Of a stretch of 49,698 bases of DNA, positions 22,507-37,510 are shown one piece after another. Numbering within the stretch: the stretch's first letter is position 1; every line of letters starts with the position of its first letter. The notes under the pieces were generated by a model that did not search any database, was not told where the DNA came from, and worked only from the letters and a program-made list of their open reading frames with translations. Source of the DNA: a virus; IMG/VR virus record IMGVR_UViG_3300045988_135203, positions 1 to 49,698 of that record. One strand, given 5' to 3'. Position numbers and translations under genes: made by a program.

Positions 22507-22599
22507 TCGATTAAATCTACGGAGCGGCAGCAGGTGCGCGAATAAAATTATCTTTTTTTAATATTATAACATAATATAAATAATTAATCAATAATTCTC

Positions 22600-22888
22600 A
22601 TTACCCTCGCCCGCATTAAAGAACGAGTCTCCGTTTTGGCTTAAAGAAACCGCAGGTTTCTTTAGCCTAATGAGGAGACAAATTTGGGGCGCGCCCTTTT
22701 TAAAGGGCGCAAGGGCTTCTTCCCGCAATTCACTTTACTCATGGATAAGAGCCATATGCTAGGTAATGCGGCCGGGTGCGCGGTTTCGGGAAAATTAGGC
22801 GCCATATGAAAACCGCTAGAAGTAGAAAAAAATCGCCATATGGGGTTCGCGAGCGGGAATTCGGGCCTTGCCTGTCGTCGGCGGCCCG
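22600..22888 (-). ncRNA. Candidate ~290-nt GC-rich structured noncoding RNA
   Basis: A GC-rich island in an AT-rich genome driven by a consensus promoter. Nested helices include GUCUCC...GGAGAC enclosing GGCUAAAGAAACC-UGC-GGUUUCUUUAAGCC, GGGCGCGCCC/AAGGGCGC, and CAUAUG repeated three times. Only Arg-rich ORFs without an RBS are present. Confidence 0.4.
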
Positions 22889-22890
22889 CC

Positions 22891-22920
22891 ATTATATCAC
22901 ACTTATCATTCTTTTGTCAA
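22891..22920 (-). promoter_or_regulatory. Minus-strand promoter of cassette 1 driving the GC-rich ncRNA candidate
   Basis: TTGACA-N17-TGATATAAT. Confidence 0.55.
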
Positions 22921-23048
22921 GCCCTTTTCTGCATTTAATTTCGATTCAGCAATTTGCACAAATCTAACCTTCAAAATTCGTCAAATTGCACAAACCGCAA
23001 AAATGCACAAAAAAGAGAGCAAATCCGCTCTCAATTTTGTTTATTATT

Positions 23049-23348
23049 TTAAAAAATGTAAGTTGCGTATAAAATACAATCAGCTACTGGTTCTGTCTGA
23101 TTATTTACCGTAGTGGCAAATGCAACAGCCACCGCGTAAATATCACATCCAGGAGAATCGAACACATGGTCACATTCAACCTCAAAATCAAATTTTTCAT
23201 TATCTTCTGGAATATATTCTTTTCCAACTTCTGAGATAACATCTTCAAATGACTCATCGTTTTCATTTATCTCTTTCCAACAGTCATCTCCCTCACTCCA
23301 AAATCCTCTTTTAATTAACATCTTTTCCAGATAATCTGCAAAACTCAT
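23049..23348 (-). CDS. Acidic hypothetical protein
   Basis: 99 aa with promoter TTGACT-N17-TATACT at 23380-23408. Confidence 0.55.
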   Translation of the reverse strand: MSFADYLEKMLIKRGFWSEGDDCWKEINENDESFEDVISEVGKEYIPEDNEKFDFEVECDHVFDSPGCDIYAVAVAFATTVNNQTEPVADCILYATYIF

Positions 23349-23379
23349 TTTTTATACCTCTCTTTCATTTGTTGAATTA

Positions 23380-23408
23380 AGTATACCATGTTTTAATTAA
23401 AAAGTCAA
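23380..23408 (-). promoter_or_regulatory. Class B promoter for 23049-23348
   Basis: TTGACT-N17-TATACT overlapping the terminator hairpin at 23413-23439. Confidence 0.5.
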
Positions 23409-23409
23409 G

Positions 23410-23440
23410 CGTTTTGGGGAAAATTTTCCCCAAAACTTAC
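23410..23440 (-). terminator. Terminator hairpin after 23440-23838 overlapping the next promoter
   Basis: GTTTTGGGGAAAATTTTCCCCAAAAC, a 10-bp stem, then a U-rich stretch on the minus strand. Confidence 0.5.
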
Positions 23441-23838
23441 TATTTTTTGGCTTTTCGCTTCTGGACAAGCGTTAATTCATAGTCATTTGAACCAATTTGA
23501 AAGAAAATCTGCCTTTCTGTATTGGTAATTTGTACATTTTCCGCACAAATTTCAGAATTTTCATTCAAAAACCGCTCAATTTCAGTAATAATCTTCTGTT
23601 TTACAGGGTTTTCTTTCTTCTTTTTGGCGGTATCGAACTTGTAAACAGTTCGTTTTTTTGTACCCGTACCCGCATATTTTTTAGCAACTTTTTTCTGCTC
23701 GGCGGATAACTCAAACAACTTTTCGCCCTTGTCAACCGCTTTATCATCCATGACCAACTGAATTGCTTCTGCTTCTGGAATGTCAAGGACTTTCATGTGA
23801 TGTTTTACAAGTTCCATGTCTTTTTGTGTAAGTTTCAT
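23440..23838 (-). CDS. Lys-rich protein, paralog family 2 (with 28807-29181)
   Basis: Shares MELxDI..EEA.Q...DD...DKGEKLF.L..EQ.K..KK ... KKTVYKFDT.K.KK.EN..KQ.IIT ... ENV..TN.ER with 28807-29181. Confidence 0.65.
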   Translation of the reverse strand: MKLTQKDMELVKHHMKVLDIPEAEAIQLVMDDKAVDKGEKLFELSAEQKKVAKKYAGTGTKKRTVYKFDTAKKKKENPVKQKIITEIERFLNENSEICAENVQITNTERQIFFQIGSNDYELTLVQKRKAKK

Positions 23839-23868
23839 AAATTATCAACTCCTTTATTTGATATATTT

Positions 23869-23897
23869 ATTATACTACCTTTTGGCTATTTTGTCAA
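23869..23897 (-). promoter_or_regulatory. Class B promoter for 23440-23838
   Basis: TTGACA-N17-TATAAT. Confidence 0.6.
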
Positions 23898-23927
23898 GGG
23901 TTCGGGGGAAAATCCCCCGAACTTTCT
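23898..23927 (-). terminator. Terminator hairpin after 23928-24302 overlapping the next promoter
   Basis: GTTCGGGGGATTTTCCCCCGAAC, a 10-bp stem. Confidence 0.45.
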
Positions 23928-24302
23928 TCATTCCTCAACAAGTGTAAAATAAGCTCTACGTTTTTCAACAACTCTATCAACTTTACCCTCTTTATAAAGG
24001 GCGGTAACAAGAGAAGTAACACGCTGATTAGTAAGTTCCGCAAGGTCTGGAACGGTTTTCATCATTTCAGATACAGTCTGTTTGTCAACTGTTTTGAGAT
24101 GAGCAAGGATTTTGACCTTGAGTTCCTCATTTTCTACCTGAGTGGCGGTAGGTTTTTTATTTGCGGAAGATTTTTTGTTTACCTGTGCAAGCATTTTCTG
24201 AAGCTTTTCAACAACCTCATCATACTGGTTATCTTCTTTCAGAACCTCGATTGCAGTTTCCAGTGCCATAGCGTTTGTCATTTTTTTGTTTGTCATAATC
24301 AT
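23928..24302 (-). CDS. Winged-helix-like protein, paralog family 1 (with 25693-26061 and 29228-29608)
   Basis: Shares N-terminal MTNAMALE.A.EVLKE and C-terminal ELTNQRVTSLVTALYKEGKVDRVVEKRRAYF (ArsR/MarR-like wing). Confidence 0.65.
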   Translation of the reverse strand: MIMTNKKMTNAMALETAIEVLKEDNQYDEVVEKLQKMLAQVNKKSSANKKPTATQVENEELKVKILAHLKTVDKQTVSEMMKTVPDLAELTNQRVTSLVTALYKEGKVDRVVEKRRAYFTLVEE

Positions 24303-24328
24303 TACCTCTTTCTTTATTTTATGTATTT

Positions 24329-24357
24329 ATTATATCACTTCTATATTCAGTTGTCAA
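24329..24357 (-). promoter_or_regulatory. Class B promoter for 23928-24302
   Basis: TTGACA-N17-TATAAT. Confidence 0.6.
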
Positions 24358-24461
24358 GACTTTTTTAAAACTTTTTTATTTTGGTGGGCTTCTCATTTTT
24401 ATTATCTCCCTTCCTTTATCTTTATACTTATTATAACACCCTTGTGGCTTTTTGTCAAGTG

Positions 24462-25070
24462 TTAATTTACATATTCTGCAAAAAATTTGTCTGCTTCTGT
24501 CATGTCAAAATGTTCGCTAATAAAGCGGTCATTCTTAAAAAAGCTGTTCGGGTATTTTTTGATATACTTTGCTCGAAACATAGACTCTACACCCTCAGCC
24601 GGCAGATTACCGCAGTCATAAACCCTATTAATAACGCAATAGGTTGCTCCCATGCCTTTATAAGTTTTTGAATTTAGTTCTTCTCTGATTCTCTGGAATA
24701 CGCTTCTTGTGGTTGTGCCGACTTTACTGCATACAAGTTCCATCTGTTCATTGAAAAATGCAATTAAATAACATTTTTCTAAACCTTTAGAATCATCCCA
24801 TGTCTTACAATCTTCTGAAATTGCAATACCCTCTTTTTTAATTTTTGCGGTAACGACTTTCCGCACATCTGTAATTTTATTAATTACTTTTTCTACTGGA
24901 TTGAGAACGTATGTTTTTACCCATTCTTTACTACTGGAATAAATCTTTTCACATACTTCAAACCAACGTTTTTTCCAACAAGGTGAAGTTGCTTTCCATC
25001 TTTCGTATGCACCCTCAAAATCATTGTTTTCCAGATACCAGTCCATTTTTTTATTTGCCATTTTTATCAA
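24462..25070 (-). CDS. Hypothetical protein
   Basis: 202 aa with a class B promoter at 25095-25123. Confidence 0.6.
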   Translation of the reverse strand: MIKMANKKMDWYLENNDFEGAYERWKATSPCWKKRWFEVCEKIYSSSKEWVKTYVLNPVEKVINKITDVRKVVTAKIKKEGIAISEDCKTWDDSKGLEKCYLIAFFNEQMELVCSKVGTTTRSVFQRIREELNSKTYKGMGATYCVINRVYDCGNLPAEGVESMFRAKYIKKYPNSFFKNDRFISEHFDMTEADKFFAEYVN

Positions 25071-25094
25071 TCCTCTCTGTTTTTCTATGTCTTT

Positions 25095-25123
25095 ATTATA
25101 GCACCTATTGGTTAGCTTGTCAA
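25095..25123 (-). promoter_or_regulatory. Class B promoter for 24462-25070
   Basis: TTGACA-N17-TGCTATAAT (extended -10). Confidence 0.6.
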
Positions 25124-25284
25124 GCGTTTTCTATAACTTTTTCAATCATTTTAAAGCGGTTAAAAATTACCTTACCACCACGAAATGTCAGACAAATCAT
25201 AGCAGTACCCTCAATTTGTGTAACATCATACACAAGTTTCTGACTTTTCAGTAATCCTACTAAAATTTCATAATCTGTTCTCAT
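25120..25284 (-). CDS. Small hypothetical protein (start trimmed; the 5' part of the track ORF is cassette 2 read antisense)
   Basis: ATG at 25284 with a GAGAGG RBS. The upstream 78 codons of the track ORF overlap a conserved noncoding cassette. Confidence 0.45.
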   Translation of the reverse strand: MRTDYEILVGLLKSQKLVYDVTQIEGTAMICLTFRGGKVIFNRFKMIEKVIENA

Positions 25285-25442
25285 TTCGTTTACCTCTCTT
25301 TCATTTGATACATTAAGTATACCATGAGCGGAGTAGAAATGCAAGTAGTAATATTGCACAAAGATGCGGCGAATTTTTTGTGCAATGTGCTGACTGGAGA
25401 ATTTTGGGAAATTTTGCGGTAAAAATTTGTGCAATTTTACTA

Positions 25443-25471
25443 TTGACAAATTTTGTGTCGTGTGGTATAAT
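25443..25471 (+). promoter_or_regulatory. Plus-strand (antisense-oriented) promoter of cassette 2
   Basis: TTGACA-N17-TGGTATAAT. Confidence 0.6.
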
Positions 25472-25477
25472 GATGAA

Positions 25478-25592
25478 TTCGGCCTAGCACAGTCGTGCGC
25501 CGGCCGCTCAAAAGTCAAGATGTAATTTTACACAAAAATAATTTTCGTCAAATTGCACAAAAAAGAAAGAGTCTGAATATTCAGACTCTTTC
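25478..25592 (+). ncRNA. Candidate ~115-nt antisense/small RNA of cassette 2
   Basis: Bounded by a consensus promoter and an intrinsic terminator, with a conserved 5' GC hairpin. Confidence 0.4.
25565..25592 (+). terminator. Intrinsic terminator of the cassette 2 RNA
   Basis: AAAGAGTCTGAATATTCAGACTCTTT. Confidence 0.5.
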
Positions 25593-25639
25593 ACAAGAAA
25601 GGAGGAAAACAAAATGATTAGTCAAAACCTTTCGGTTTA

Positions 25640-25690
25640 GAAGAGGGGTGAGAGGGAATCGAACCCTCTCGAACAACCGTTCCCCCTGTG
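25640..25690 (-). ncRNA. tRNA T-arm/acceptor-like minihelix immediately after stop of 25693-26061
   Basis: GAGAGGGTTCGATTCCCTCTC (7-bp stem with a canonical GGTTCGATTCC T-loop) flanked by GGGGG...CCCC. There are no D or anticodon arms. Confidence 0.3.
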
Positions 25691-25692
25691 GC

Positions 25693-26061
25693 TTACTCTA
25701 CAAAGAAGTAAGCCTTTCTTTTCTCAACCTCTCTCTGGATTTTTAAATCTTTAACAAGAGCGGTCAGCAGAGAAGTGATTCTCTGGTTTGTGAGTTCCGC
25801 AAGCTCTGGAACCTCTTTAGCAAGCTCTGTTGCTGTGAATCTCTTTTCGGATTCTGTAAGGAAGTTTACAATGATTTCTTTCAGCTTTTCATTTTCTTCC
25901 TGAGTAGCTGTTTTCTTTGTAGAAGATTTCTTCTTTTCAAAACCCTCTTTGATTTTTTCAAGCTTCTCAACCAGTTCAACAGAACCGTTGTTTTCTTTTA
26001 CAACCTTGATTGCCATTTCCATTGCTACTACGTTTGTAAGTTTGTTTGTCATACTTATCAC
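25693..26061 (-). CDS. Winged-helix-like protein, paralog family 1
   Basis: 122 aa carrying ELTNQRITSLLTALVKDLKIQREVEKRKAYF, with a class B promoter at 26091-26119. Confidence 0.65.
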   Translation of the reverse strand: MISMTNKLTNVVAMEMAIKVVKENNGSVELVEKLEKIKEGFEKKKSSTKKTATQEENEKLKEIIVNFLTESEKRFTATELAKEVPELAELTNQRITSLLTALVKDLKIQREVEKRKAYFFVE

Positions 26062-26090
26062 CTTTTCCTTTTCTTTTATTTTATGTATTT

Positions 26091-26119
26091 ATTATACCAT
26101 TTCTTTATTTAGTTGTCAA
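26091..26119 (-). promoter_or_regulatory. Class B promoter for 25693-26061
   Basis: TTGACA-N17-TATAAT. Confidence 0.6.
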
Positions 26120-26145
26120 GTCTTTTTTTATTTTTTCTTAAGGGC

Positions 26146-26313
26146 TTACTCGATGTAAGCCCCAGCGACATTCTTAATAGTGCCGTCCTGTCCAAAGAAG
26201 ATTACGTTATCCGCAACCACTCTTACACCTTTGCATCTCATCTCATGGCGAAAACCATAATCCTCTTTAAATCTTTTAATAAACTCTCTTTTTGTCATTT
26301 TTGTGTTTGTCAT
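26146..26313 (-). CDS. Small hypothetical protein (55 aa), absent from the ORF track
   Basis: ATG with a GAGAGG RBS and a class B promoter at 26345-26373. Confidence 0.45.
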   Translation of the reverse strand: MTNTKMTKREFIKRFKEDYGFRHEMRCKGVRVVADNVIFFGQDGTIKNVAGAYIE

Positions 26314-26344
26314 AACTTATTACCTCTCTTTTTCTTTTTTCTTT

Positions 26345-26373
26345 ATTATAGCACCAACTGCTAGGTTTGTCAA
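26345..26373 (-). promoter_or_regulatory. Class B promoter for 26146-26313
   Basis: TTGACA-N17-TGCTATAAT. Confidence 0.55.
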
Positions 26374-26451
26374 GTATTTTTTTAAATTTTTTTGAAGGCT
26401 TTACGCTTAACACTTGACTAAAAGCATTTACCTTTACTTCTTTATGTCTTT

Positions 26452-26480
26452 ATTATAACACCAGAAGTTTAATTTGTCAA
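26452..26480 (-). promoter_or_regulatory. Class B promoter (tandem, ~110 bp upstream of 26345-26373)
   Basis: TTGACA-N17-TATAAT. Confidence 0.5.
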
Positions 26481-26495
26481 GAGGTTTTTCAAATT

Positions 26496-26750
26496 TTATT
26501 TTGAAAGATTAACCTCAGCATCAACAGGTTCTACTCTCTGTACTCTATTAAAAGCTCGAATCTGCCCAGTAGCAAGATTAACTGCCATTACATTGTCTTT
26601 GTAGCTGTCAAGGAAAATACCACTATTTCTATCAACAACCATGTACAATCCCACTTCATCAACACCACTTCTTTTACTAAAGAATGTGCTTCCCACTGTC
26701 AACTTGTAAACATAAATTCCTGTCGCTTTCCTATCATAATTAACTTTCAT
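26496..26750 (-). CDS. Hypothetical protein
   Basis: 84 aa with a promoter at 26784-26812. Confidence 0.55.
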   Translation of the reverse strand: MKVNYDRKATGIYVYKLTVGSTFFSKRSGVDEVGLYMVVDRNSGIFLDSYKDNVMAVNLATGQIRAFNRVQRVEPVDAEVNLSK

Positions 26751-26783
26751 TTTTTATCATTTCCTTTCCTTTATTATGTATAT

Positions 26784-26812
26784 ATAATATCATATTTTTT
26801 ATTGTTTGTCAA
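26784..26812 (-). promoter_or_regulatory. Class B-like promoter for 26496-26750
   Basis: TTGACA-N17-TATTAT. Confidence 0.5.
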
Positions 26813-26828
26813 TAGTTTTTTAAAATTT

Positions 26829-27311
26829 TTACAGATTTTTGGTTTCGCTCACAAAATACTTTGCATGATAAACATTTAATAAATCTTTAACTGCCTTGCT
26901 TTGATTTTGATTTGCACAATAGCAATTAATTAAAACATATTTGTCAATATCAATATAATTGCAAGGTACGTGACAATCTTTAAGTTTTTTAACAAGCTCT
27001 TCCCAGCCAACAGCTTTTAAAACAGTTGCTTCTACTTTCCACAGTTTGTCTTTTCTTGCTTTCTCTTCACCCCATTTTACAAGCCAAACACCAATTAAAT
27101 TAGCAAGAAAAGTTACAACAACTTTTTGCCATAATGGAAAATCTGCGACTGTATAAATAAGAACCACATTATAATAACCATAATATCCCGCAGAAATAAG
27201 GCTTGCGACTGTTTTTCCTGATTTAATTGTTACAATAGATTTAATAGTTGAAAAGATAACGTTTACAACTGTCAATAATGAAAATAAAATTAATACATTC
27301 ATTGATTTCAC
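26829..27311 (-). CDS. Membrane protein (multiple N-terminal TM helices) with Cys-rich C-terminal domain
   Basis: 160 aa with a class B promoter at 27331-27359. Confidence 0.6.
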   Translation of the reverse strand: MKSMNVLILFSLLTVVNVIFSTIKSIVTIKSGKTVASLISAGYYGYYNVVLIYTVADFPLWQKVVVTFLANLIGVWLVKWGEEKARKDKLWKVEATVLKAVGWEELVKKLKDCHVPCNYIDIDKYVLINCYCANQNQSKAVKDLLNVYHAKYFVSETKNL

Positions 27312-27330
27312 TCACTTTCTTTTTTCTTTT

Positions 27331-27359
27331 ATTATACACCTACTTATGGATTTTGTCAA
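27331..27359 (-). promoter_or_regulatory. Class B promoter for 26829-27311
   Basis: TTGACA-N17-TATAAT. Confidence 0.6.
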
Positions 27360-27367
27360 GGACTATT

Positions 27368-27658
27368 TTATAAAATAGTCCTTGTTGTAATTTTTAATAA
27401 TTCACCTGTATCTTTATCATAATAAATAGTTGCTTCTGTACCAATAGGACAAACATAATTATCAATAGAATAAATTATATCACCCTGTTTATTTTCAAAT
27501 TCCATAGTAGTAGAATCACTGTCCTCGTGGTAAATTTTCTTTGTTGCAGTAACTTCTGTATATCTTACATTGCTAGTGTAATTTTCTGTGCTGATAATTA
27601 CTATTATGATAATAACCGCCAAACCAATTCCGGCTAATACATCACGCCATACTTTCAT
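27368..27658 (-). CDS. Membrane-anchored small protein
   Basis: 96 aa with an N-terminal TM/signal segment. Confidence 0.55.
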   Translation of the reverse strand: MKVWRDVLAGIGLAVIIIIVIISTENYTSNVRYTEVTATKKIYHEDSDSTTMEFENKQGDIIYSIDNYVCPIGTEATIYYDKDTGELLKITTRTIL

Positions 27659-27660
27659 AA

Positions 27661-27789
27661 CTATATTTCCTCACTTTCTTTAAAAATTTCTTCAATCAGC
27701 TTTTTAGTTTCTTCTACACCAACGTATAAAGCTGACTTTTCGATTGCATCAAATAAAAGTGTTTTTGCTTCCATTTCTTTTTCTGTCAT
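27661..27789 (-). CDS. Small hypothetical protein (42 aa), absent from the ORF track
   Basis: ATG after a GAGAGG RBS, with a class B promoter at 27821-27849. Confidence 0.4.
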   Translation of the reverse strand: MTEKEMEAKTLLFDAIEKSALYVGVEETKKLIEEIFKESEEI

Positions 27790-27820
27790 GCTTTTTATCT
27801 CCTCTCTTAACTATGCACTT

Positions 27821-27849
27821 ATTATATCATAGGGGCTGAGGTTTGTCAA
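27821..27849 (-). promoter_or_regulatory. Class B promoter with the -35 inside a GGGG...CCCC hairpin
   Basis: GGGGGTTGACAAACCTCAGCCCC hairpin immediately after the stop of 27866-28204, then TATAAT. Confidence 0.55.
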
Positions 27850-27865
27850 CCCCCATTTTTAATTT

Positions 27866-28204
27866 TTAATGATTAAACCGCAAATAAATTTTAGTCCAGC
27901 TGAAGCCGAAACGCTCTTCTAACTGTTTTTCTTCTTCTGAATTCGTTTCCATGATTGAAATTTTCATAATTGTATCCCAGTCAATAGTTGTAAACCATGT
28001 TCCTTCTTTCATGCCTTTACTAAAGCGGAAATTGTCAAGAATGTAATCCATTACTTTCTGTTTTTTAATTGTTTTCATACATTCTTCCAGAGAAATAACC
28101 TGACTGCTAAAAACTGGTTTAGTTTCAAAACCTGTTACTTTCCATCCGCTAATTTTACTTTCAATATTTAACATAATTATCAACCTCTCTTTCATTTGAT
28201 ACAT
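27866..28204 (-). CDS. Hypothetical protein
   Basis: 112 aa with a class B promoter at 28207-28235. Confidence 0.55.
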   Translation of the reverse strand: MYQMKERLIIMLNIESKISGWKVTGFETKPVFSSQVISLEECMKTIKKQKVMDYILDNFRFSKGMKEGTWFTTIDWDTIMKISIMETNSEEEKQLEERFGFSWTKIYLRFNH

Positions 28205-28206
28205 TT

Positions 28207-31799: not shown

Positions 31800-31816
31800 T
31801 ACCTTTTTTGGAACTC

Positions 31817-32296
31817 TCAGAAAAATTTTCTGAGAGTTCCAATAATGTCGTTTACATCAAAACTGTTTTCGCCCCACTCTTCTCTGTTGCGTTCTTCATC
31901 ATCAAAGAGCCATCCGTCACAATCAACAACTGTACTTTTTGGTGTGCCATAATTTACAATTTTGACTTCATCCCACTCGACACTCGGCAGATGTTTTTCG
32001 AGCCATGCAAGTTTTACACTTGTTACCGCTGTGTTATAAGCTGTCGAACCGCTTTTGCTTAACCAACTCACAATACCGATTCTATAACCGTTTCCCTGTA
32101 ATTTATGTAACATTCTTGCAAATACTGAGAAGTTGAAAAGCGGTCTTGCGATTGCATAAGGCGTGGTATCCTCATTTTCCAGATAGTCTAACCAGTTTTC
32201 TACACCATAGAAGTTAGCTAAAGTACCATCCATATCAAAGTAAATAGTTCCTTTTGTCTCCATCATTTCTTTAATTGTGTTCATCATAATCATCAA
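31817..32296 (-). CDS. HAD-superfamily 5'(3')-deoxyribonucleotidase-like hydrolase, paralog 1
   Basis: HAD motif I FDMDGTLA (DxDGT) and motif IV LFDDE. About 45 percent identical to 36422-36889. Confidence 0.7.
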   Translation of the reverse strand: MMIMMNTIKEMMETKGTIYFDMDGTLANFYGVENWLDYLENEDTTPYAIARPLFNFSVFARMLHKLQGNGYRIGIVSWLSKSGSTAYNTAVTSVKLAWLEKHLPSVEWDEVKIVNYGTPKSTVVDCDGWLFDDEERNREEWGENSFDVNDIIGTLRKFF

Positions 32297-32324
32297 TTCC
32301 TTTCTTTTCCTTTTCTTTAATTAT

Positions 32325-32353
32325 ATTATATACTATCTTTTATAATTTGTCAA
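32325..32353 (-). promoter_or_regulatory. Class B promoter for 31817-32296
   Basis: TTGACA-N17-TATAAT. Confidence 0.55.
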
Positions 32354-32374
32354 CAATTTTTTTTAAATTTTTTC

Positions 32375-32806
32375 TCAGATTTTTGTAATCCCTCTATCTC
32401 TTAAATATTCACAAAAACTGTCGGCATCCAGTAAATCCGCAAGTTCTTTAATTGTAAGATTTTCTTTCTTGTATACACAACGAAATTCAATAGGTTTAAA
32501 GTTTTTTTCTGTAATTCTGTCTCCGCCTGTATAAAAATCATCAACGTTACTAAGTACAACCATTGGTTTTCTAAACAGTGTTTTTTCAAGTCTACCGTTC
32601 ATAAAAAAACCATCTTTTACTAAACTAACAAGCTGAGGAAAATCTCTGATTAAACCTGTCCAGTTTTCAGCATCTTTTGGCTCAATGTATCTTGCGTGTC
32701 GCCAGACGCTAGTATCAACAAATTCTTTCTGTCCCTCAAGTCTGTATTCAAATCTGTAATTATAAACCTCTTTCATTTTTATTTTCCTCTCTTTCATTTG
32801 ATACAT
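32375..32806 (-). CDS. Hypothetical protein
   Basis: 143 aa with a class B promoter at 32809-32837. Confidence 0.55.
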   Translation of the reverse strand: MYQMKERKIKMKEVYNYRFEYRLEGQKEFVDTSVWRHARYIEPKDAENWTGLIRDFPQLVSLVKDGFFMNGRLEKTLFRKPMVVLSNVDDFYTGGDRITEKNFKPIEFRCVYKKENLTIKELADLLDADSFCEYLRDRGITKI

Positions 32807-32808
32807 TT

Positions 32809-32837
32809 ATTATAATCCTCTTTGCTTTATTTGTCAA
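32809..32837 (-). promoter_or_regulatory. Class B promoter for 32375-32806
   Basis: TTGACA-N17-TATAAT. Confidence 0.6.
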
Positions 32838-33087
32838 GTAATATTTTATAAATTTTTTCAACTAATTCTTTCTGCATTTCATACATTTTATCTTCGTTAT
32901 CTTCTTCTAAATAAAGACGAATAATTTCGTATGTGTCATCCATGTATCTGATTTCTACCCAACCTTCATAATAAACAGTAATAACACCTTTAGAAGTCTT
33001 TCTGTTTTTTCTAGTATCTTTAATCTCAACTTTCTTAATGTTCTGTAATCCATAAATTGTATTTTCAACTTTAATATATTTTTCCAT
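32827..33087 (-). CDS. Hypothetical protein
   Basis: 86 aa. Confidence 0.5.
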   Translation of the reverse strand: MEKYIKVENTIYGLQNIKKVEIKDTRKNRKTSKGVITVYYEGWVEIRYMDDTYEIIRLYLEEDNEDKMYEMQKELVEKIYKILLDK

Positions 33088-33116
33088 CTCTTTTTCCTCT
33101 CTCTCTTAACTTGATT

Positions 33117-33145
33117 ATAGTATATCACATGAGATTGAATTTGTC
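33117..33145 (-). promoter_or_regulatory. Class B promoter for 32827-33087
   Basis: TTGACA-N17-TGATATACT. Confidence 0.5.
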
Positions 33146-33154
33146 AACACATTT

Positions 33155-33379
33155 TTAAATTTCTTTTTTTGCTTCTTCTGTTGTTAATCCATAACCTTTC
33201 CAAGGGTCGTACTTTCCAAACAGAATTGTTTCATCAACAGTATCACACATTTTATTATTGACATTGTAATCATAATAAAACCATTTTTTACAATCCCATT
33301 TTAACGGACAGTGGTAGCAAGTTGTTGTAGTTGCAACAGTGTCTATATTAATTGCCATTAACGCTTTTATCTTAATCAT
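33155..33379 (-). CDS. Small Cys-containing hypothetical protein (start trimmed to MIKIKAL)
   Basis: The N-terminal 65 codons of the track ORF are cassette 5 read antisense, with the same MQFYYLT artefact as 30775-30987. Confidence 0.45.
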   Translation of the reverse strand: MIKIKALMAINIDTVATTTTCYHCPLKWDCKKWFYYDYNVNNKMCDTVDETILFGKYDPWKGYGLTTEEAKKEI

Positions 33380-33529
33380 TTTATTTACCCCTCTTCCTTT
33401 ATCTTGATTATAGTATAGCATGGTTACGGGAAAATGTCTATAGGCAAATTGCACAAAGATTTCGCTGTAAAATAGTTGAATTTCTCTGTTTTGCACAAAA
33501 ACCGGCCGCAGCGCTTGTCGCCGGCCGGC

Positions 33530-33558
33530 CATTTTATCACACTTCTTCATTTCTGTCA
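33530..33558 (-). promoter_or_regulatory. Minus-strand promoter of cassette 5
   Basis: TTGACA-N17-TGATAAAAT. Its leader contains the GC hairpin and TTGTGCAA repeats and runs into 33155-33379. Confidence 0.5.
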
Positions 33559-33573
33559 AGTAGTAAAATTGCA

Positions 33574-33608
33574 CAAAAAAAGAGCTGAAATTTCAGCTCT
33601 TTTTTTTT
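33574..33608. terminator. Bidirectional intrinsic terminator in cassette 5
   Basis: AAAAAAAGAGCTGAAATTTCAGCTCTTTTTTTTT. Confidence 0.65.
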
Positions 33609-33792
33609 ACTGTTCCTTTGTTACACTTTTAACAAGTGCCCGCAATTCCGCAACCCCAAAGCAGTCCATGTATTCGCCCATTGCCTTTTTTAATTCTGAG
33701 GTTCTTTTGGCTCTGAGCTGTCCTATCATCCATTCATATTCTTCTTTGTTTAATGTGTAAGGACAACAACCATTTTCTTTTAATTCATACAT
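33607..33792 (-). CDS. Small Cys-containing hypothetical protein
   Basis: 61 aa with a class B promoter at 33827-33855. Confidence 0.5.
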   Translation of the reverse strand: MYELKENGCCPYTLNKEEYEWMIGQLRAKRTSELKKAMGEYMDCFGVAELRALVKSVTKEQ

Positions 33793-33826
33793 TTTTTATT
33801 CCTCTCTTTCTTTATCTTATGTACTT

Positions 33827-33855
33827 ATTATACCAGAGGTTTGGGCTTTTGTCAA
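33827..33855 (-). promoter_or_regulatory. Class B promoter for 33607-33792
   Basis: TTGACA-N17-TATAAT. Confidence 0.6.
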
Positions 33856-34103
33856 GCCCTTTCCTCACTTTTATTCATGTTTGTTACAAACTCTGTACTA
33901 AATTTATCATAGACTTCTGGACTTACTTTGTCTGCGATAAATTCCATTACTGTACAAATACCATACATGAAACTATTGTTTCCATGCTTTGCATCATAGC
34001 AACCTTTGAATAACTTCGGTCCTTTTGATACCATGTCATCATAAACCAGATGATAAGCGGCTTTTAAAGTTTTTTCATATTCCTGTTCTGTCATAATTAT
34101 CAA
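33852..34103 (-). CDS. Hypothetical protein
   Basis: 83 aa with a promoter at 34133-34161. Confidence 0.5.
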   Translation of the reverse strand: MIIMTEQEYEKTLKAAYHLVYDDMVSKGPKLFKGCYDAKHGNNSFMYGICTVMEFIADKVSPEVYDKFSTEFVTNMNKSEERA

Positions 34104-34132
34104 TTCCTTTCTTTATCTCTTTTGTTGATTAT

Positions 34133-34161
34133 AGTATACCATAGGTTTAGAAGTTTGTCAA
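34133..34161 (-). promoter_or_regulatory. Class B promoter for 33852-34103
   Basis: TTGACA-N17-TATACT. Confidence 0.5.
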
Positions 34162-34192
34162 GACTTTTTATTTTTTTCTTTGATTTATTTTC

Positions 34193-34315
34193 TATGATAT
34201 AATTAAGTTGTCAAGAGGTTTTTTAAGGTATTTTTTGTGACGAGTGCCGATTTTACTTCACACAATTATGCGTCGTGGAGAGGTTGGTTGCTGTATCTCC
34301 TCTTGACACCTTAAT
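34193..34315. repeat. ~28-bp inverted repeat separated by ~60 bp, downstream of a class B promoter
   Basis: CCTCTTGACA(A/C)CTTAATTATATCATAG is present in both orientations at 34193-34224 and 34285-34312. Confidence 0.55.
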
Positions 34316-34342
34316 TATATCATAGGGGGTTGAGTTTGTCAA
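34314..34342 (-). promoter_or_regulatory. Class B promoter firing into the inverted-repeat region 34193-34315
   Basis: TTGACA-N17-TATAAT with hairpin-embedded -35. No ORF lies between it and the next promoter. Confidence 0.5.
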
Positions 34343-34358
34343 CCCCATTTTTTATTTT

Positions 34359-34706
34359 TTATCTTTCTTTCAGACTATGCATTACGATTGTATGACCGCA
34401 TTTATCACAAGTGTAATAGTATTCATCATCACCACTTCTATGATGTACTGTACTTGTAAACTTGTAAGGCTCATTACATTCTGTACAATATCCGTTGTTC
34501 CATGCTTCATCATCACCTTTACTCTGTAATGTAAATAATCCACCTATACCACATCCAATAGCAACCGCAAGTATAATTCCAATTATCCATTTTACTATTG
34601 GTTTATTGTTTTCAGCAATAGTATTTACAATACACATTGCCATGAAACCACCAACTATTAAACTCATAAATATTGATACTGAAATAAATTCTGCCATGTA
34701 ACTCAT
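34359..34706 (-). CDS. Membrane protein with C-terminal zinc ribbon
   Basis: 115 aa with two TM helices followed by CTEC...CDKCGH. Confidence 0.55.
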   Translation of the reverse strand: MSYMAEFISVSIFMSLIVGGFMAMCIVNTIAENNKPIVKWIIGIILAVAIGCGIGGLFTLQSKGDDEAWNNGYCTECNEPYKFTSTVHHRSGDDEYYYTCDKCGHTIVMHSLKER

Positions 34707-34737
34707 TTTATTTACCTCTCTTTCTTTAACTGTCTTT

Positions 34738-34766
34738 ATTATAGCACAAGGGGTTTAGTTTGTCAA
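34738..34766 (-). promoter_or_regulatory. Class B promoter for 34359-34706
   Basis: TTGACA-N17-TGCTATAAT. Confidence 0.6.
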
Positions 34767-34770
34767 CCCT

Positions 34771-35067
34771 TTATTTAAAAAATTCTTTCGCTGTTTCTCT
34801 ATATCTTTTTGGAACACCTGTGATAAATTTTTCTTTATCTTCTTCTGATAATGTTCTTCTTAATTGTTTTGGTGTTACTGAAAAAGGATTTAGATGATAT
34901 TTAATCATTAGTGGAAATACTTTAATAAATGTAAGTGTTTTAATCATGGTTATAATCTTGCCAAGGATTTCAATAGGCATCCAGAACCATTCCCACTCAT
35001 TGTAATAACTTAAATAACTCAGTGTGTACATTGCGATAATAATTGTTACTACTAATAATGTTTTCAT
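34771..35067 (-). CDS. Small membrane protein
   Basis: 98 aa with an N-terminal TM. Confidence 0.5.
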   Translation of the reverse strand: MKTLLVVTIIIAMYTLSYLSYYNEWEWFWMPIEILGKIITMIKTLTFIKVFPLMIKYHLNPFSVTPKQLRRTLSEEDKEKFITGVPKRYRETAKEFFK

Positions 35068-35098
35068 TTTATTTACCTCTCTCTCTTAACTTGATTAT

Positions 35099-35127
35099 AG
35101 TATATCACAAGGGGTTGAATTTGTCAA
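35099..35127 (-). promoter_or_regulatory. Class B promoter for 34771-35067, -35 in a perfect 8-bp hairpin
   Basis: GGGGTTGACAAATTCAACCCC then TGTGATATACT. Confidence 0.55.
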
Positions 35128-35147
35128 CCCCTTTTTGAATTTTTTTT
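35111..35147. terminator. Hairpin plus T-run containing the -35 of a class B promoter
   Basis: GGGGTTGAATTTGTCAACCCC followed by TTTTTGAATTTTTTTT on the plus strand, with an A-rich stretch before it. Confidence 0.5.
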
Positions 35148-35292
35148 AAATTAATTGTAACAGATAACTTCCATCATTCTGTGCAAGTATTCTGACAATT
35201 TCCTCTCGATTCTGCGAGAGAATTTCCCCTGTTGAGCAATCCACAAGTGCGGTTTCATAACCTTTTTCAATGTAAAGTCCTAAAATCATCAT
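35146..35292 (-). CDS. Small hypothetical protein (48 aa), absent from the ORF track
   Basis: ORF filling the gap between neighbours, with a GAGG RBS. Confidence 0.35.
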   Translation of the reverse strand: MMILGLYIEKGYETALVDCSTGEILSQNREEIVRILAQNDGSYLLQLI

Positions 35293-35308
35293 AAAAAACA
35301 CCTCTTTC

Positions 35309-35464
35309 TTAAATAAGTTTTAATAAGTTACCGTTTTTATCAAAACAAAAGCCTACAGTTTCATCTGATACAAGTTCAAAATAGTCTGAGTCATCTACTG
35401 GAATCCATATTCCAGCCTTTCTAAAGATTTCTAATAATTTTTCTTTATCAGTTTTTTTGACCAT
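35309..35464 (-). CDS. Small hypothetical protein (51 aa), absent from the ORF track
   Basis: ATG after GAGAGG, with a class B promoter at 35491-35519. Confidence 0.4.
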   Translation of the reverse strand: MVKKTDKEKLLEIFRKAGIWIPVDDSDYFELVSDETVGFCFDKNGNLLKLI

Positions 35465-35490
35465 CTCTTTTACCTCTCTTTCTAATACCT

Positions 35491-35519
35491 ATTATACCAG
35501 TCCTTGACTCATTTGTCAA
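35491..35519 (-). promoter_or_regulatory. Class B promoter for 35309-35464
   Basis: TTGACA-N17-TATAAT. Confidence 0.55.
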
Positions 35520-35793
35520 GGACTATTTTTTTAATTTCATCATCATAGATGTTATTATCAGTGTGCATTGTATCCATGATAAGCTTTACATTATCACCAG
35601 TTTCAAGGTTTGTACCATCCTCAAAATAATAATCCCAGTCATTTCCAGTAGAATCTGTGAAAGTTACAAGGTTGTCATTCTGTACTTTTACAACCTCTGC
35701 GGTTCTGGTGTATGTACTTTCATAAGTTCCTACACCACCAATTACTGCGATACCTAACATAACTGCTAATACTGTTTTAATCATCCTCATCAT
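35509..35793 (-). CDS. Secreted or membrane-anchored small protein (signal peptide)
   Basis: Hydrophobic N-terminus MIKTVLAVMLGIAVIGGVGT. Confidence 0.55.
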   Translation of the reverse strand: MMRMIKTVLAVMLGIAVIGGVGTYESTYTRTAEVVKVQNDNLVTFTDSTGNDWDYYFEDGTNLETGDNVKLIMDTMHTDNNIYDDEIKKIVLDK

Positions 35794-35808
35794 TTCCTCT
35801 CTTTCATT

Positions 35809-35837
35809 TGATACATTAAGTATAACATCAAGCTATT
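35809..35837 (-). promoter_or_regulatory. Class B promoter for 35509-35793
   Basis: TTGACA-N17-TATACT. Confidence 0.5.
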
Positions 35838-35905
35838 TATTTGTCAATATACAAAATAACCAATTTCGGGATGCAAATTATTTAATATTTTGTACAATTT
35901 TCCTA

Positions 35906-35935
35906 TTGACAAACTGCGGCGACCTGTGGTATAAT
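35906..35935 (+). promoter_or_regulatory. Plus-strand promoter of cassette 6, followed after about 10 nt by a terminator
   Basis: TTGACA-N18-TGGTATAAT. Confidence 0.55.
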
Positions 35936-35949
35936 TAGTCAGGGCAGCA

Positions 35950-35978
35950 GGCGACCATAGCGGTCGCCCCTTTCTTTT
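35950..35978 (+). terminator. Terminator of the cassette 6 mini-transcript
   Basis: GGCGACCATAGCGGTCGCC then CCTTTCTTTT. Confidence 0.5.
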
Positions 35979-36123
35979 AGTATTCTACGATTGTATACAT
36001 CAACCGCATTAACTGTTCATTAGTAAACTCTCCTGACTCACAATCCTCACAGAACATAACTGTTAATGGACTCTCAAAGCCTAACTGTTTAATTACGTTA
36101 TCCATCATTTCTTTTACTGTCAT
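35977..36123 (-). CDS. Small hypothetical protein (48 aa), absent from the ORF track
   Basis: ATG after a GGAGG RBS, with a class B promoter at 36156-36184. Confidence 0.4.
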   Translation of the reverse strand: MTVKEMMDNVIKQLGFESPLTVMFCEDCESGEFTNEQLMRLMYTIVEY

Positions 36124-36155
36124 CTTTAATGACCTCCTTCTCTTAACTTGATTAT

Positions 36156-36184
36156 AGTATACTACAATCAGATTGATTTGTCAA
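36156..36184 (-). promoter_or_regulatory. Class B promoter for 35977-36123
   Basis: TTGACA-N17-TATACT. Confidence 0.5.
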
Positions 36185-36190
36185 TAGGAA

Positions 36191-36215
36191 AATAAGAATA
36201 TTTTAAAAATATTCT
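36191..36215. repeat. 23-bp perfect palindrome
   Basis: AAGAATATTTTAAAAATATTCTT in the ~250-bp noncoding stretch that also holds CTTTACTACT twice and the hairpin GAGAGAGAACGTTTGTTCTCTCTC. Confidence 0.5.
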
Positions 36216-36421
36216 TTGCTTTCTCACATTAATCCTTTACTACTAGATTGCTGTACTGTTGCGTTACTTTAATGCTTTACTACTTTAGTGTAATGAAGTC
36301 TCGCTACTCATTGCCTTTGTTATTCTATTAACACTCCTGTTAATTTTTTAACAATCTGCGTCCCACGAACCGCAGAACATAGATAGAGAGAGAACGTTTG
36401 TTCTCTCTCCTCTTTATCCTT

Positions 36422-36889
36422 TTACACATGATACTGCATCAACTCTTTAAGCACATCCATCATAACTATAGCGTCAACACTTGCACCTTGCCACTCTTCT
36501 CTATTCCTTGCCTCATCATCGAATAGTATTCCACCGCAAGGCACTGCCGCACGTTTGTTCTGTCCATACTCTGTTACAATAATCTCATTCCAATTAACAC
36601 TAGGAAGATGCTTCTTTAGCCATGTTCTCTTGGCTTCTTCTATTGCTTGCACATAATCAAGTGTTGCGTTCTTACTTGCCCATGAGATAACACCTAACTT
36701 ATAACCTCTCCTCTGTAGTGCATTGACGCGCCTTGCAAATAGACTCATGGTAACAAGCGGTCTTGCTATCTCATAAGGCACTGTGCTACCATGTACCAGA
36801 TAGTCAAGCCATCCTTCTACACTGTAAAGGTCTGCAATAGTTCCATCTAAGTCGAACCATAACCATTTATTATCTAACATACTAATCAC
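36422..36889 (-). CDS. HAD-superfamily 5'(3')-deoxyribonucleotidase-like hydrolase, paralog 2
   Basis: FDLDGTIA and LFDDEARNREEW, collinear with 31817-32296. Confidence 0.7.
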   Translation of the reverse strand: MISMLDNKWLWFDLDGTIADLYSVEGWLDYLVHGSTVPYEIARPLVTMSLFARRVNALQRRGYKLGVISWASKNATLDYVQAIEEAKRTWLKKHLPSVNWNEIIVTEYGQNKRAAVPCGGILFDDEARNREEWQGASVDAIVMMDVLKELMQYHV

Positions 36890-36921
36890 TCTTTCTTTCT
36901 TTTATCTTTATCTTTATATTT

Positions 36922-36950
36922 ATTATAACACCTTTGTGCTTGCTTGTCAA
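36922..36950 (-). promoter_or_regulatory. Class B promoter for 36422-36889
   Basis: TTGACA-N17-TGTTATAAT. Confidence 0.6.
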
Positions 36951-37022
36951 GACCTTTCTTTGTGTCTTTCTCTCTGCCTTGTCTTGCCTCTTGGCTCAAG
37001 GGTTAGCCTAGGCTAACCCGCT

Positions 37023-37142
37023 CTATACCAGATAAGTATCAATAATAGAGCCACCTACTCTCTTGGCAGTTAGTTCAGCCAAACTCTTGCTACTTGTTAA
37101 CAAAACGAATTTTCCCTCTTTATCAATAACCTCATACTTCAT
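37023..37142 (-). CDS. Small hypothetical protein (39 aa), absent from the ORF track
   Basis: ATG after GAGAGG, with a class B promoter at 37178-37206. Confidence 0.35.
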   Translation of the reverse strand: MKYEVIDKEGKFVLLTSSKSLAELTAKRVGGSIIDTYLV

Positions 37143-37177
37143 GTCTTTGTTCCTCTCTTTCTCTCTTTCTTTATACA

Positions 37178-37206
37178 TAGTATAGCACATAGGTAGTCAC
37201 TTGTCA
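37178..37206 (-). promoter_or_regulatory. Class B promoter for 37023-37142
   Basis: TTGACA-N17-TATACT. Confidence 0.5.
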
Positions 37207-37306
37207 AGAGGTTTTAATAAATTTTCTTTGTTAATTTCTTAACAAACGAACTACTAGGAATCGCAGTTTTCGTCATTAACTTACACTCCATGAGAACATC
37301 AAGTCT

Positions 37307-37335
37307 ATTATACCACAGATGCGCGGCGATGTCAA
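37307..37335 (-). promoter_or_regulatory. Class B promoter with a ~130-nt leader
   Basis: TTGACA-N17-TGGTATAAT. Confidence 0.55.
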
Positions 37336-37510
37336 TAGGTAATATTGCACAAAGATTAATTATTATTTTTGTGCAACATGCTGTTGTGCAATGTGACGAA
37401 TTTTGGGAAATGAACTAAAATATTTTTGTGCAAGTTTTTGCTTGACAAATTGTTGTGTCTCGTGTTATAATTGAAATTAGGGCCTGCGCCTGCGTCTACG
37501 GCCCGAGGAT
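37320..37510. promoter_or_regulatory. Regulatory cassette 7
   Basis: TTGCACAAA, TTTGTGCAA twice, TTGTGCAA and GAATTTTGGGAAATG, then promoter at 37443-37471 and hairpin AGGGCCTGCGCCTGCGTCTACGGCCCG. Confidence 0.45.
37443..37471 (+). promoter_or_regulatory. Plus-strand promoter of cassette 7 pointing towards the homing-endonuclease region
   Basis: TTGACA-N17-TATAAT followed by the AGGGCC...GGCCCG hairpin. Confidence 0.55.

Follow-up and report, generated by a model that had tools for sequence, protein, structure and literature searches.

Polar GC hairpins and head-on promoters at the ends of early operons in an uncultured virus, probably a phage of gut Firmicutes

In countertranscript systems such as IS10 pIN/pOUT with RNA-OUT, lambda OOP, P22 sar, and pIP501 RNAIII with CopR, a strong constitutive promoter faces a sense unit, and a short stem-loop RNA overlaps the sense RNA by tens of nucleotides (nt). 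In IS10, the two face-to-face starts are ~36 bp apart. T4-type phages reportedly carry PeSL (promoter-early stem-loop) cassettes, as described by Arbiol et al. in 2010. These are, respectively, the closest functional and the closest architectural analogues of the units that we describe here. The units lie in a stretch of viral DNA of 49,698 nt (IMG/VR record IMGVR_UViG_3300045988_135203, positions 1 to 49,698), which we will call the window. A first-pass annotation, made by a model from the sequence alone, had described seven copies of a regulatory cassette between positions 22,560 and 37,510. We find that most of these cassettes combine a short, GC-rich hairpin with a strong promoter, and that the hairpins belong to a family that is, by the comparisons below, real and common among related uncultured phages.

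From 22.5 to 41 kb, the window is a dense early block of small genes on the minus strand. The block holds six GC hairpins of ~27 nt, five of them exactly 27 nt, and all with the same strand polarity (Table 1). Two kinds of promoter accompany them. Type A promoters are on the plus strand, antisense to the genes, and are followed by the hairpin; type B promoters are on the minus strand and face the hairpin from its other side. Five of the cassettes have a type A promoter, and each of these matches the sigma-A consensus at 12 of 12 positions and has the TG of an extended -10. Three cassettes have a facing sense promoter. The first-pass annotation had given all seven cassettes a single architecture. 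They do form a family of promoters, hairpins, and motifs, but cassette 6 is a bare promoter-terminator, and most of cassette 1 is another element. Perfect plus-strand promoters were expected in most cassettes and are absent from cassettes 1 and 5. The conserved hairpin is present in six, while that of cassette 6 is a plain terminator. Most cassettes do end in a terminator, but none is clear in cassette 7. The facing promoters of cassettes 1, 4, and 5 are where they had been predicted, but those of cassettes 1 and 5 lack a plus-strand partner. Finally, what had been taken for the tail of the hairpin, AUUUUAU, is really the -10 (TAAAAT) of the facing minus-strand promoter.

Table 1. Cassette features and winged helix-turn-helix (wHTH) genes in the window. 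The -35 of a plus-strand promoter begins at the first position given; minus-strand promoters read from the last position.
Feature	Position	Strand	Remarks
Cassette 1, separate conserved non-coding element	22400-22860	-	Fills most of cassette 1; homologues at loci L016-L018, L025, L043, L052, L066, L081, L090, L093, L107, L108, L110, L121, L136
Cassette 1, hairpin	22862-22888	+	27 nt; type A polarity; no plus-strand promoter
Cassette 1, type B promoter (TTGACA-N18-TATAAT)	22891-22920	-	Reads through hairpin into GC-rich element
Cassette 1, motif copies	22954-22962, 22986-22994		
Cassette 1, terminator	23015-23032		
Cassette 2, GAATTTTGGGAAAT	25399-25412		
Cassette 2, TTTGTGCAA	25426-25434		
Cassette 2, type A promoter (TTGACA-N17-TGgTATAAT)	25443-25471	+	
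Cassette 2, hairpin	25480-25506	+	27 nt; begins 8 nt past -10
Cassette 2, TTGCACAAA	25553-25561		Overlaps T-run of terminator
Cassette 2, terminator of upstream sense gene	25565-25592	-	U-tract on minus strand only
Cassette 3, GAATTTTGGGAAAT / GAATTTYGGGAAWT	28594-28607		
Cassette 3, upstream element	28621-28629		
Cassette 3, type A promoter (N18)	28638-28667	+	
Cassette 3, hairpin	28675-28701	+	27 nt
Cassette 3, remnant facing -35 (TGTCAA)	28708-28713		Abuts hairpin; no -10
Cassette 3, sense terminator	28766-28790		
Cassette 4, GAATTTTGGGAAAT / GAATTTYGGGAAWT	30822-30835		
Cassette 4, type A promoter	30867-30895	+	
Cassette 4, hairpin	30903-30940	+	38 nt; same outer stem, CGGGCC/GGCCCG
Cassette 4, type B sense promoter (TTGACA-N17-TAAAAT)	30944-30972	-	-10 just 3 nt from hairpin
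Cassette 4, upstream element of type B promoter	30982-30990		
Cassette 4, terminator	30991-31013		
Cassette 5, hairpin	33502-33528	+	27 nt; type A polarity; no plus-strand promoter
Cassette 5, type B sense promoter (TAAAAT)	33531-33559	-	
Cassette 5, upstream element	33569-33577		
Cassette 5, terminator	33575-33606		
Cassette 6, promoter and terminator	35906-35975	+	Perfect promoter (35906-35935), then directly an intrinsic terminator (stem 35950-35968 and T-run); predicted RNA ~35-40 nt; upstream element is the variant TTTGTACAA
Cassette 7, further motif copies	37345, 37368, 37384		
Cassette 7, GAATTTTGGGAAAT	37398-37411		
Cassette 7, upstream element	37425-37433		
Cassette 7, type A promoter (N18)	37442-37471	+	
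Cassette 7, hairpin	37479-37505	+	27 nt; weak model match; no clear terminator after it
wHTH paralogs	23928-24302, 25693-26061, 29228-29608		Early genes

In the window, strong promoters other than these do not lead into GC hairpins. Perfect TTGACA-N17-TATAAT promoters are common in the window (26 found, 0.03 expected), and on the minus strand each small gene or operon has one, for a total of ~40 that are perfect or nearly so. We folded the first 50 nt 3' of every strong promoter. About 38 gene promoters lead into unstructured, purine-rich leaders with a ribosome-binding site (RBS) ~20 nt away. GC hairpins, with a folding free energy (dG) of -11 to -20 kcal/mol and no RBS, are found only after the five plus-strand promoters and the three facing minus-strand promoters.

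To see this family in other phages, we gathered related loci by using a conserved 25-mer, a neighboring protein of 240 amino acids, and a promoter pattern, TTGTGCAA-N8/9-TTGACA-N17/18-TATAAT. This composite promoter occurs in at least 118 stretches of viral contigs, mostly from contigs of 80-400 kb. Among the matches listed, anchoring on the promoter gave 81 unique type A units, with the consensus AAATTTTGTGCAA-N8-TTGACA-AA..TGn-TATAAT-GGAAATT-[GC stem]-CC-AAAAAA, and 50 type B units. The type B geometry is conserved and asymmetric: the facing -10 is only 2-4 nt from the stem, versus 7-8 nt for type A. For a test in which the hairpin played no part in the selection, we used the 149 unique viral promoters of the TTGTGCAA type (again among the matches listed). 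A GC stem of at least 7 bp begins within 15 nt of the -10 in 63 of the 149, versus 5.0 (maximum 8) in dinucleotide shuffles, and its offset from the -10 peaks at 7-8 nt. The length of the hairpin peaks sharply at 27 nt. Altogether, 82 of the 149 promoters lead into a hairpin, and most of the others lead into ordinary genes with an RBS.

The stems also covary. We aligned 31 hairpins of 27 nt from 17 other phages; pairing of the outer seven positions was a selection criterion, but the identity of the pairs was not. In this alignment, 88.7% of paired cells are complementary, versus 63.7% in shuffles and at most 45% if the partner is slid. All 10 stem pairs show changes on both sides, and pairs 1 (C-G), 6 (C-G), and 7 (G-C) hardly vary. 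From this alignment, which leaves out the window and its close relatives, we built a covariance model. At E ≤ 0.0055, it recovers five hairpins in the window, among them those of cassettes 1 and 5, and every one is on the plus strand. The first-pass annotation had suggested such an alignment and search as a check of the hairpin, and the check came out in its favor: the model has 177 matches in 1.19 Mb of related loci. None of 52 loci has matches on both strands, and the coding strand is opposite to the hairpin strand in 14 of 15 loci. Genomes have from several to about eleven copies. The architecture is also kept in distant relatives, including the published phage Phass-1, whose right-end early region contains three such units (at 130714, 132917, and 134921); no strong plus-strand promoter other than theirs occurs in the 50 kb that we examined. 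The model has no matches in SPbeta or in the Kayvirus repeat (discussed below).

No loop or single-stranded motif is conserved across the aligned units, and a candidate loop motif, TGGGTCG/CGACCCA, is not enriched in either orientation (4 and 3 copies, versus 5.9 and 5.2 in shuffles). Nor did we find a described family. A search against Rfam 15, including its CRISPR direct-repeat families, gave only tRNAs at the gathering threshold and, for positions 22300-38000, nothing relevant at E ≤ 1, so neither the hairpins nor the GC-rich element of cassette 1 matches a known RNA. A literature search on convergent promoters in the early regions of phages found no description of such units.

Where are the hairpins? 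Anchoring on the hairpin instead of the promoter gave 140 unique elements: 74 have a type A promoter (with a gap of 7-8 nt) and 32 have a type B promoter (2-4 nt), including 19 with both. The stop codon of the convergent gene is a median of 42 nt beyond the hairpin, and the next, divergent gene starts a median of 137 nt upstream of the type A -35. A terminator in the sense direction directly adjoins 34 of the 55 elements with only a type A promoter and 25 of the 53 with no promoter. These terminators are preceded by an A-tract, which is a U-tract in the sense RNA: at least 5 U in 8 nt are present for the sense RNA in 37 of 40 terminators, versus 9 of 40 for the countertranscript. The predicted plus-strand RNA would enter the convergent gene's terminator. 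Maps of two related loci (L015 and L038) have the same layout as the window, with operons of 1-4 small genes, each followed by a head-on promoter-hairpin, every ~1-3 kb. The flanking genes themselves are diverse (114 clusters among ~150 proteins).

Most of the promoters in the cassettes share an upstream motif. TTGCACAAA occurs 17 times, versus 1.13 expected, and all copies are within 22954-37433; contrary to the first-pass annotation, which saw operator-like repeats in every cassette, cassette 6 has no exact copy. TTTGTGCAA is 8-9 nt upstream of a -35 hexamer in seven cases, on both strands, versus 0 expected. The element thus sits at about -44 to -52 of its promoters. Among them are two that serve ordinary genes (25339 and 37335), besides the antisense promoters and the facing sense ones. 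When 185,579 species genomes were scanned, the composite promoter turned up in at least 120 stretches, and the matches listed are nearly all from Clostridia of the gut or rumen (Oscillospiraceae, Ruminococcaceae, Acutalibacteraceae, Lachnospiraceae, and Christensenellales). Among these matches, the host genes behind the promoter include those for ribosomal protein L21 (rplU), acyl carrier protein (acpP), NrdR (nrdR), adenylosuccinate synthetase PurA (purA), and YlxM (ylxM), as well as tRNA and leader RNAs. (Chromosomal examples of TTGTGCAA 8-9 nt before a -35 are our loci L144-L263, such as L160, L231, L225, L176, and L202.) Given the fixed distance from the -35 on both strands and the housekeeping promoters of the hosts, TTTGTGCAA is, as judged from its placement, a host-type upstream promoter element and not a phage operator.

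This element is similar to the UP element in being A/T-rich, at about -40 to -60, in register with the -35, and in the strongest phage and housekeeping promoters. Like an UP element, TTGTGCAA has a fixed place directly before the -35 of strong promoters of both host and phage. Also, AAAATTTGTGCAAAATT matches much of the UP consensus of Ross, Estrem, and Gourse. Unlike the UP element, it has a conserved GTGC core and, among the matches listed, is apparently specific to Clostridia (Oscillospirales and Lachnospirales). TTGTGCAA looks like a lineage-specific upstream element of Clostridia that is undescribed as far as we could find: a full-text search of the literature for the motif gave only primers and unrelated matches.

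The cassettes contain two further motifs. The composite TTGTGCAA-NN-TGACGAA has 3 exact copies, versus 0.13 expected. We considered that TGACGAA might be a Spo0A box, but TGACGAA alone is not enriched (8 versus 4.5). The other is GAATTTTGGGAAAT, which the first-pass annotation had listed as a frequent companion of the repeats, and which may resemble a CodY box. Allowing 3 mismatches, it is not enriched in the window (15 found, 20 expected), but in cassettes 2, 3, 4, and 7, GAATTTTGGGAAAT or GAATTTYGGGAAWT lies exactly 81 nt upstream of the hairpin start. In other phages, RGGGAWW, which is akin to GAATTTYGGGAAWT, is found ~60-75 nt upstream of hairpins that lack a promoter, often beside a sense-strand TTGACA.

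How do these units compare to the known systems? As in the countertranscript systems, the hairpins, at the dG given above, are stable stem-loops, and the distance between the face-to-face promoters of cassette 4 is similar to that of IS10. Unlike those systems, the units are present in many copies per genome and adjoin the 3' ends of operons instead of covering an RBS or leader, so that the overlap is with a terminator or 3' untranslated region. Their hairpins are hypervariable in sequence but fixed in size, more than a third of them have no promoter, and the units are known from sequence alone. With PeSL cassettes they share a repeated, intergenic early promoter of the host type and a stem-loop, flanking small early open reading frames (ORFs) in a plastic region with mosaic borders. 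However, PeSL promoters follow the direction of the genes, and their stem-loop is the terminator of the preceding gene; here, the promoter points against the genes (in 14 of 15 loci), and the hairpin into which it fires is a separate one. A closer analogue of PeSL within the window is at ordinary gene junctions, where the -35 (TTGACA) of the next promoter lies within the stem-loop that terminates the preceding gene (31173-31194, 35109-35133, 35499-35524, 34326-34346, and 29668-29684).

Other comparisons were less close. The long terminal repeat of Kayvirus, an early region of host takeover in a Firmicute phage, has intergenic small RNAs of unknown role, some of them on the minus strand, such as snc002 of 46 nt (PMC9241854). 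In the terminal repeat of the Staphylococcus phage SAP23 (our locus L143), we noticed sigma-A promoters, perfect and face-to-face, whose GAAGTGAAGAC/GGACGTGGAG leaders are conserved, at ~2496-2802 and ~5434-5564. The Kayvirus layout is analogous, but there is no homology of sequence or structure, and in place of GC hairpins the leaders are A/T-rich. The type I toxin-antitoxin systems of SPbeta and skin (bsrG/SR4, yonT/SR6, and txpA/RatA) have a convergent antisense RNA over the 3' end of a small gene, with RNase III. We rejected this explanation because the convergent genes, which are diverse, do not encode hydrophobic proteins: 6 of 79 are transmembrane-like, versus 6 of 72 on the divergent, control flank (8% each). 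Also, the predicted overlap is much shorter than in those pairs. Similarly, antitermination leaders (lambda nut/boxB or Q-type) seem inconsistent with the lack of a conserved loop motif and with the lack of any plus-strand ORF downstream of the cassettes within the early block.

The anatomy, polarity, covariation, conservation, and genomic position of the units are seen in the sequences; any transcription, polymerase pausing, interference, and effects on RNA are what we infer. We tentatively propose that the cassettes are operon-end modules that would insulate early units from each other and that might also tune down the convergent mRNA; we consider this a real possibility, if short of probable. 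An antisense or interference role was among those suggested by the first-pass annotation, and it is compatible with the antisense promoters, the structured hairpin, and the face-to-face pairs. On the minus strand, an early operon ends at an intrinsic terminator, and directly past its U-tract is the polar GC hairpin of ~27 nt. In about half of the copies, there is then a host sigma-A promoter of maximal strength, aimed back at the operon. Its parts are the upstream TTTGTGCAA, which would maximize the recruitment of polymerase, TTGACA, a spacer of 17-18 nt, TGnTATAAT, and a GG discriminator, and it is back-to-back with the next operon's own promoter. Transcription from the head-on promoter would start at the base of the hairpin and give a short countertranscript that is capped by the hairpin at its 5' end. 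(In Firmicutes, a stem within a few nt of the 5' end is a known requirement for protection from 5'-dependent decay.) The countertranscript would enter the A-tract and then the terminator of the upstream operon, which should be weak in that direction. Together, the GC block, the bound or paused head-on polymerase, and the stable antisense RNA could stop read-through between early units. The convergent early mRNA might be tuned down or cleared, either through collision or because the antisense RNA pairs with its 3' end. If a type B promoter is present, then the two promoters would be too close for independent occupancy, and the countertranscript would overlap the first 20-40 nt of the sense RNA. 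Promoters that are too close to act independently are known from IS10 pIN/pOUT and from phage 186.

Several observations do not sit easily with this proposal. No strong promoter is found on either side of 53 of the 140 hairpins (38%), so the hairpin must have some role for which the countertranscript is not needed. Cassette 6 is inside an operon and has no sense terminator. It is also hard to see what would be gained by blocking read-through, since the next operon already has a perfect promoter of its own. Nearly all stem pairs are Watson-Crick, with as many A.C as G.U mismatches (3 versus 3); without an excess of G.U over A.C, either strand could be the acting one, and the structure could act at the level of either RNA or DNA. 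Lastly, the size of 27 nt and the near-invariance of pairs 1, 6, and 7 suggest recognition by a factor, beyond a generic clamp or a 5' stabilizer. A bolder idea, which we doubt, is that the polar, CG-clamped, 27-nt hairpin with its head-on promoter is an undescribed but widespread class of phage regulation (~180 copies in 1.2 Mb) that would be read on the RNA by a specific host or phage factor. It might then be a genome-wide timer that clears or insulates the immediate-early transcripts, or a decoy against a host ribonuclease or an RNA-sensing defense.

Several other explanations should be considered. The hairpins might be the functional part of stable, trans-acting or decoy small RNAs that are made in large amounts and that bind and titrate or modify a host or phage protein (a ribonuclease, an RNA-sensing defense protein, or a polymerase-associated factor), with the antisense location being incidental. 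This would explain the maximal strength of the promoters, the start of the hairpin at +1 or +2 of the predicted RNA, the multiple copies (several to ~eleven per genome), and why the preferred length and three nearly invariant pairs stand out amid otherwise free covariation. Also, hairpins have been swapped between phages whose proteins are 95% identical, as expected in an arms race. But a trans-acting RNA would not need strict polarity or a place at the end of an operon, 38% of the elements have no promoter, no conserved loop or single-stranded motif was found, and Rfam offers no family at E ≤ 1, even among the CRISPR repeats. We think that this is unlikely. A somewhat fainter prospect is that the cassettes are similar to PeSL in their evolution: they would be kept as tracts of homology for the shuffling of small early genes, or as selfish elements, and would have no regulatory role. 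The mosaic evolution of the cassettes could be explained this way. Across three phages with 95-96% identical neighboring proteins, the type A promoters are conserved and the cassette borders are full of indels. The hairpin of cassette 2 has a compensatory change (A-U to G-C), and the hairpins of cassettes 3 and 4 have been replaced outright. There are also many near-identical promoter-leader segments of 60-70 bp, both within and between genomes, and there are promoter-less copies that appear to have decayed. However, covariation, size, polarity, and the spacing from promoter to stem are kept across very divergent phages (terminase 44% identical), which argues for purifying selection on a function and not mere tracts of homology. 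And on inspection of the orthologous cassettes, we saw no target-site duplications or terminal repeats.

We see even less room for the remaining two explanations. The first-pass annotation suggested that the repeats might be operators or titration sites for a repressor, perhaps the wHTH paralogs. There is a precedent: SPBRE is the operator of the MrpR repressor of SPbeta (PMC10516654). As with our motif, SPBRE is a short repeat that is tied to about ten early promoters, in a siphophage that is large and SPbeta-related. Some copies of our motif have no obvious tie to a -35, including the inverted pair TTGCACAAA-N14-TTTGTGCAA of cassettes 2 and 7 and the composite with TGACGAA. And the wHTH family is present in multiple copies, in 28 of 37 loci that have the units. 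Nevertheless, operators seem very unlikely. SPBRE overlaps the core promoter (TAGACAAA...TATGTATATAAT), while TTGTGCAA is at its fixed distance upstream of the -35, on both strands, and is shared with ordinary phage genes and with the host's rplU, acpP, nrdR, purA, and ylxM. We rejected homology to SPBRE/MrpR because the sequences are unrelated and SPbeta has neither clustering of the motif nor hairpins. In short, we found neither a phage-specific, occluding motif nor a cognate protein that is associated with the sites. The wHTH family is the largest cluster of flanking genes (13 of ~150 proteins), but it is simply abundant, with 51 copies in 368 kb, or ~8% of early genes versus ~8.6% of the neighbors of cassettes, so its adjacency to the cassettes is not an enrichment. 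Or, the GC palindromes might act as DNA, as transcription-activated secondary sites for replication or priming, or as sites for gyrase or a structure-specific protein. This could account for the Watson-Crick stems with no strand bias, for promoters on one side, both, or neither, and for the hairpin with a type B promoter that heads an origin-like element in cassette 1. But the flanks are polar (AAAUU...CC-A-tract), the distance from the -10 to the stem fits the 5' end of an RNA, and the CATATG(G/C) repeats of the origin-like element are absent from the other cassettes. Furthermore, 8-bp stems with loops of ~11 nt extrude poorly from duplex DNA. We consider a DNA-level role to be very unlikely as well.

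The origin-like element makes up most of cassette 1. It has three CATATGGC repeats (at 22751, 22801, and 22835) and the motifs ATTTTTTTCTA and AATTTTCCCGAAA, and next comes an AT-rich, extended -10 promoter (22563-22591) that is followed by AAAAAAAGA / AAAAAAAGAnTTTTTT. The same motifs, in the same order and with variable spacing, are found once per genome in 16 related phages. Its minus strand folds somewhat better than shuffles (z = -2.96), and it has no match in Rfam. Short conserved motifs fit protein-binding DNA better, so this is a candidate replication origin or similar site, with a structured RNA as the alternative.

What kind of phage is this? The window has a G+C content of ~32% and seven tRNA genes. 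Its late genes are on the plus strand from 41.2 kb and include a sigma-like protein, the large subunit of terminase, and the portal. The terminase shares 61% identity with one from an uncultured phage of the human gut and 44-51% with those of Phass-1, Enterococcus phages EF1, H1, and VRE9_4, and Geobacillus E3; SPbeta-type YonF is a more distant relative. Against 50,697 phage records, megablast and blastn found no DNA-level match to any phage and no cassette units in cultured phages; the sole shared DNA was a 28-nt piece in Phass-1. Given its terminase relatives and the absence of a DNA-level match, the source is, on this evidence, an uncultured large siphophage of gut Firmicutes. Hosts of Phass-1 were predicted to be Clostridia (PMC10607447). 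Here, the upstream motif points to a host range in Oscillospirales or Lachnospirales.

The wHTH family is a hallmark of this phage clade. Its members have ~115-137 amino acids and a winged-helix-like region at the C terminus, KPTAxQxENE...LSNQRVSALLRQL...EKRKAYF. The family has no match in PHROG or the PDB, and its matches to winged-helix families in Pfam are all below the threshold. Just 3' of the second wHTH gene (25640-25700, minus strand), we noticed a tRNA-like minihelix, GGGGGAACGGTTGTTC-GAGAGGGTTCGATTCCCTCTC-ACCCCTC, whose T-arm is perfect and whose stem is acceptor-like; ARAGORN and Rfam both leave it uncalled. Directly past cassette 7 is an HNH or homing-endonuclease-like gene (37675-38400, minus strand; PHROG 559, E = 3e-36). 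In this cassette the basal pair of the hairpin is A.G, instead of C-G as in its relatives. The presence of the HNH-type gene there may be why cassette 7 lacks the usual terminator. The early block also encodes a Thg1-like tRNA-His guanylyltransferase (39398-40267, minus strand; PHROG 4717, E = 4e-85), in a phage with seven tRNA genes. And at 34170-34342 (minus strand), a leader, GGTGTCAAGAGG...CCTCTTGACAAC, comes after a perfect promoter, and the 3' arm of this leader doubles as the -35 of a second promoter, so transcription from the first promoter could sequester or expose the second. Phass-1 has the same layout (locus L001, about 2650-2763).

If our proposal of operon-end insulation is correct, then large phages of the dominant Clostridia of the gut and rumen (Oscillospiraceae, Ruminococcaceae, and Lachnospiraceae) would order their immediate-early program with a reusable, head-on promoter-hairpin that acts as an insulator or countertranscript. 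For dense arrays of very strong promoters, this would amount to a compact principle of design, and Firmicute synthetic biology would gain a candidate part. Apart from that proposal, the element TTGTGCAA, which lies near -44 to -52, aids the annotation of promoters and the assignment of hosts to uncultured phages, and the covariance model is a simple marker for this clade of phages and for their early regions.

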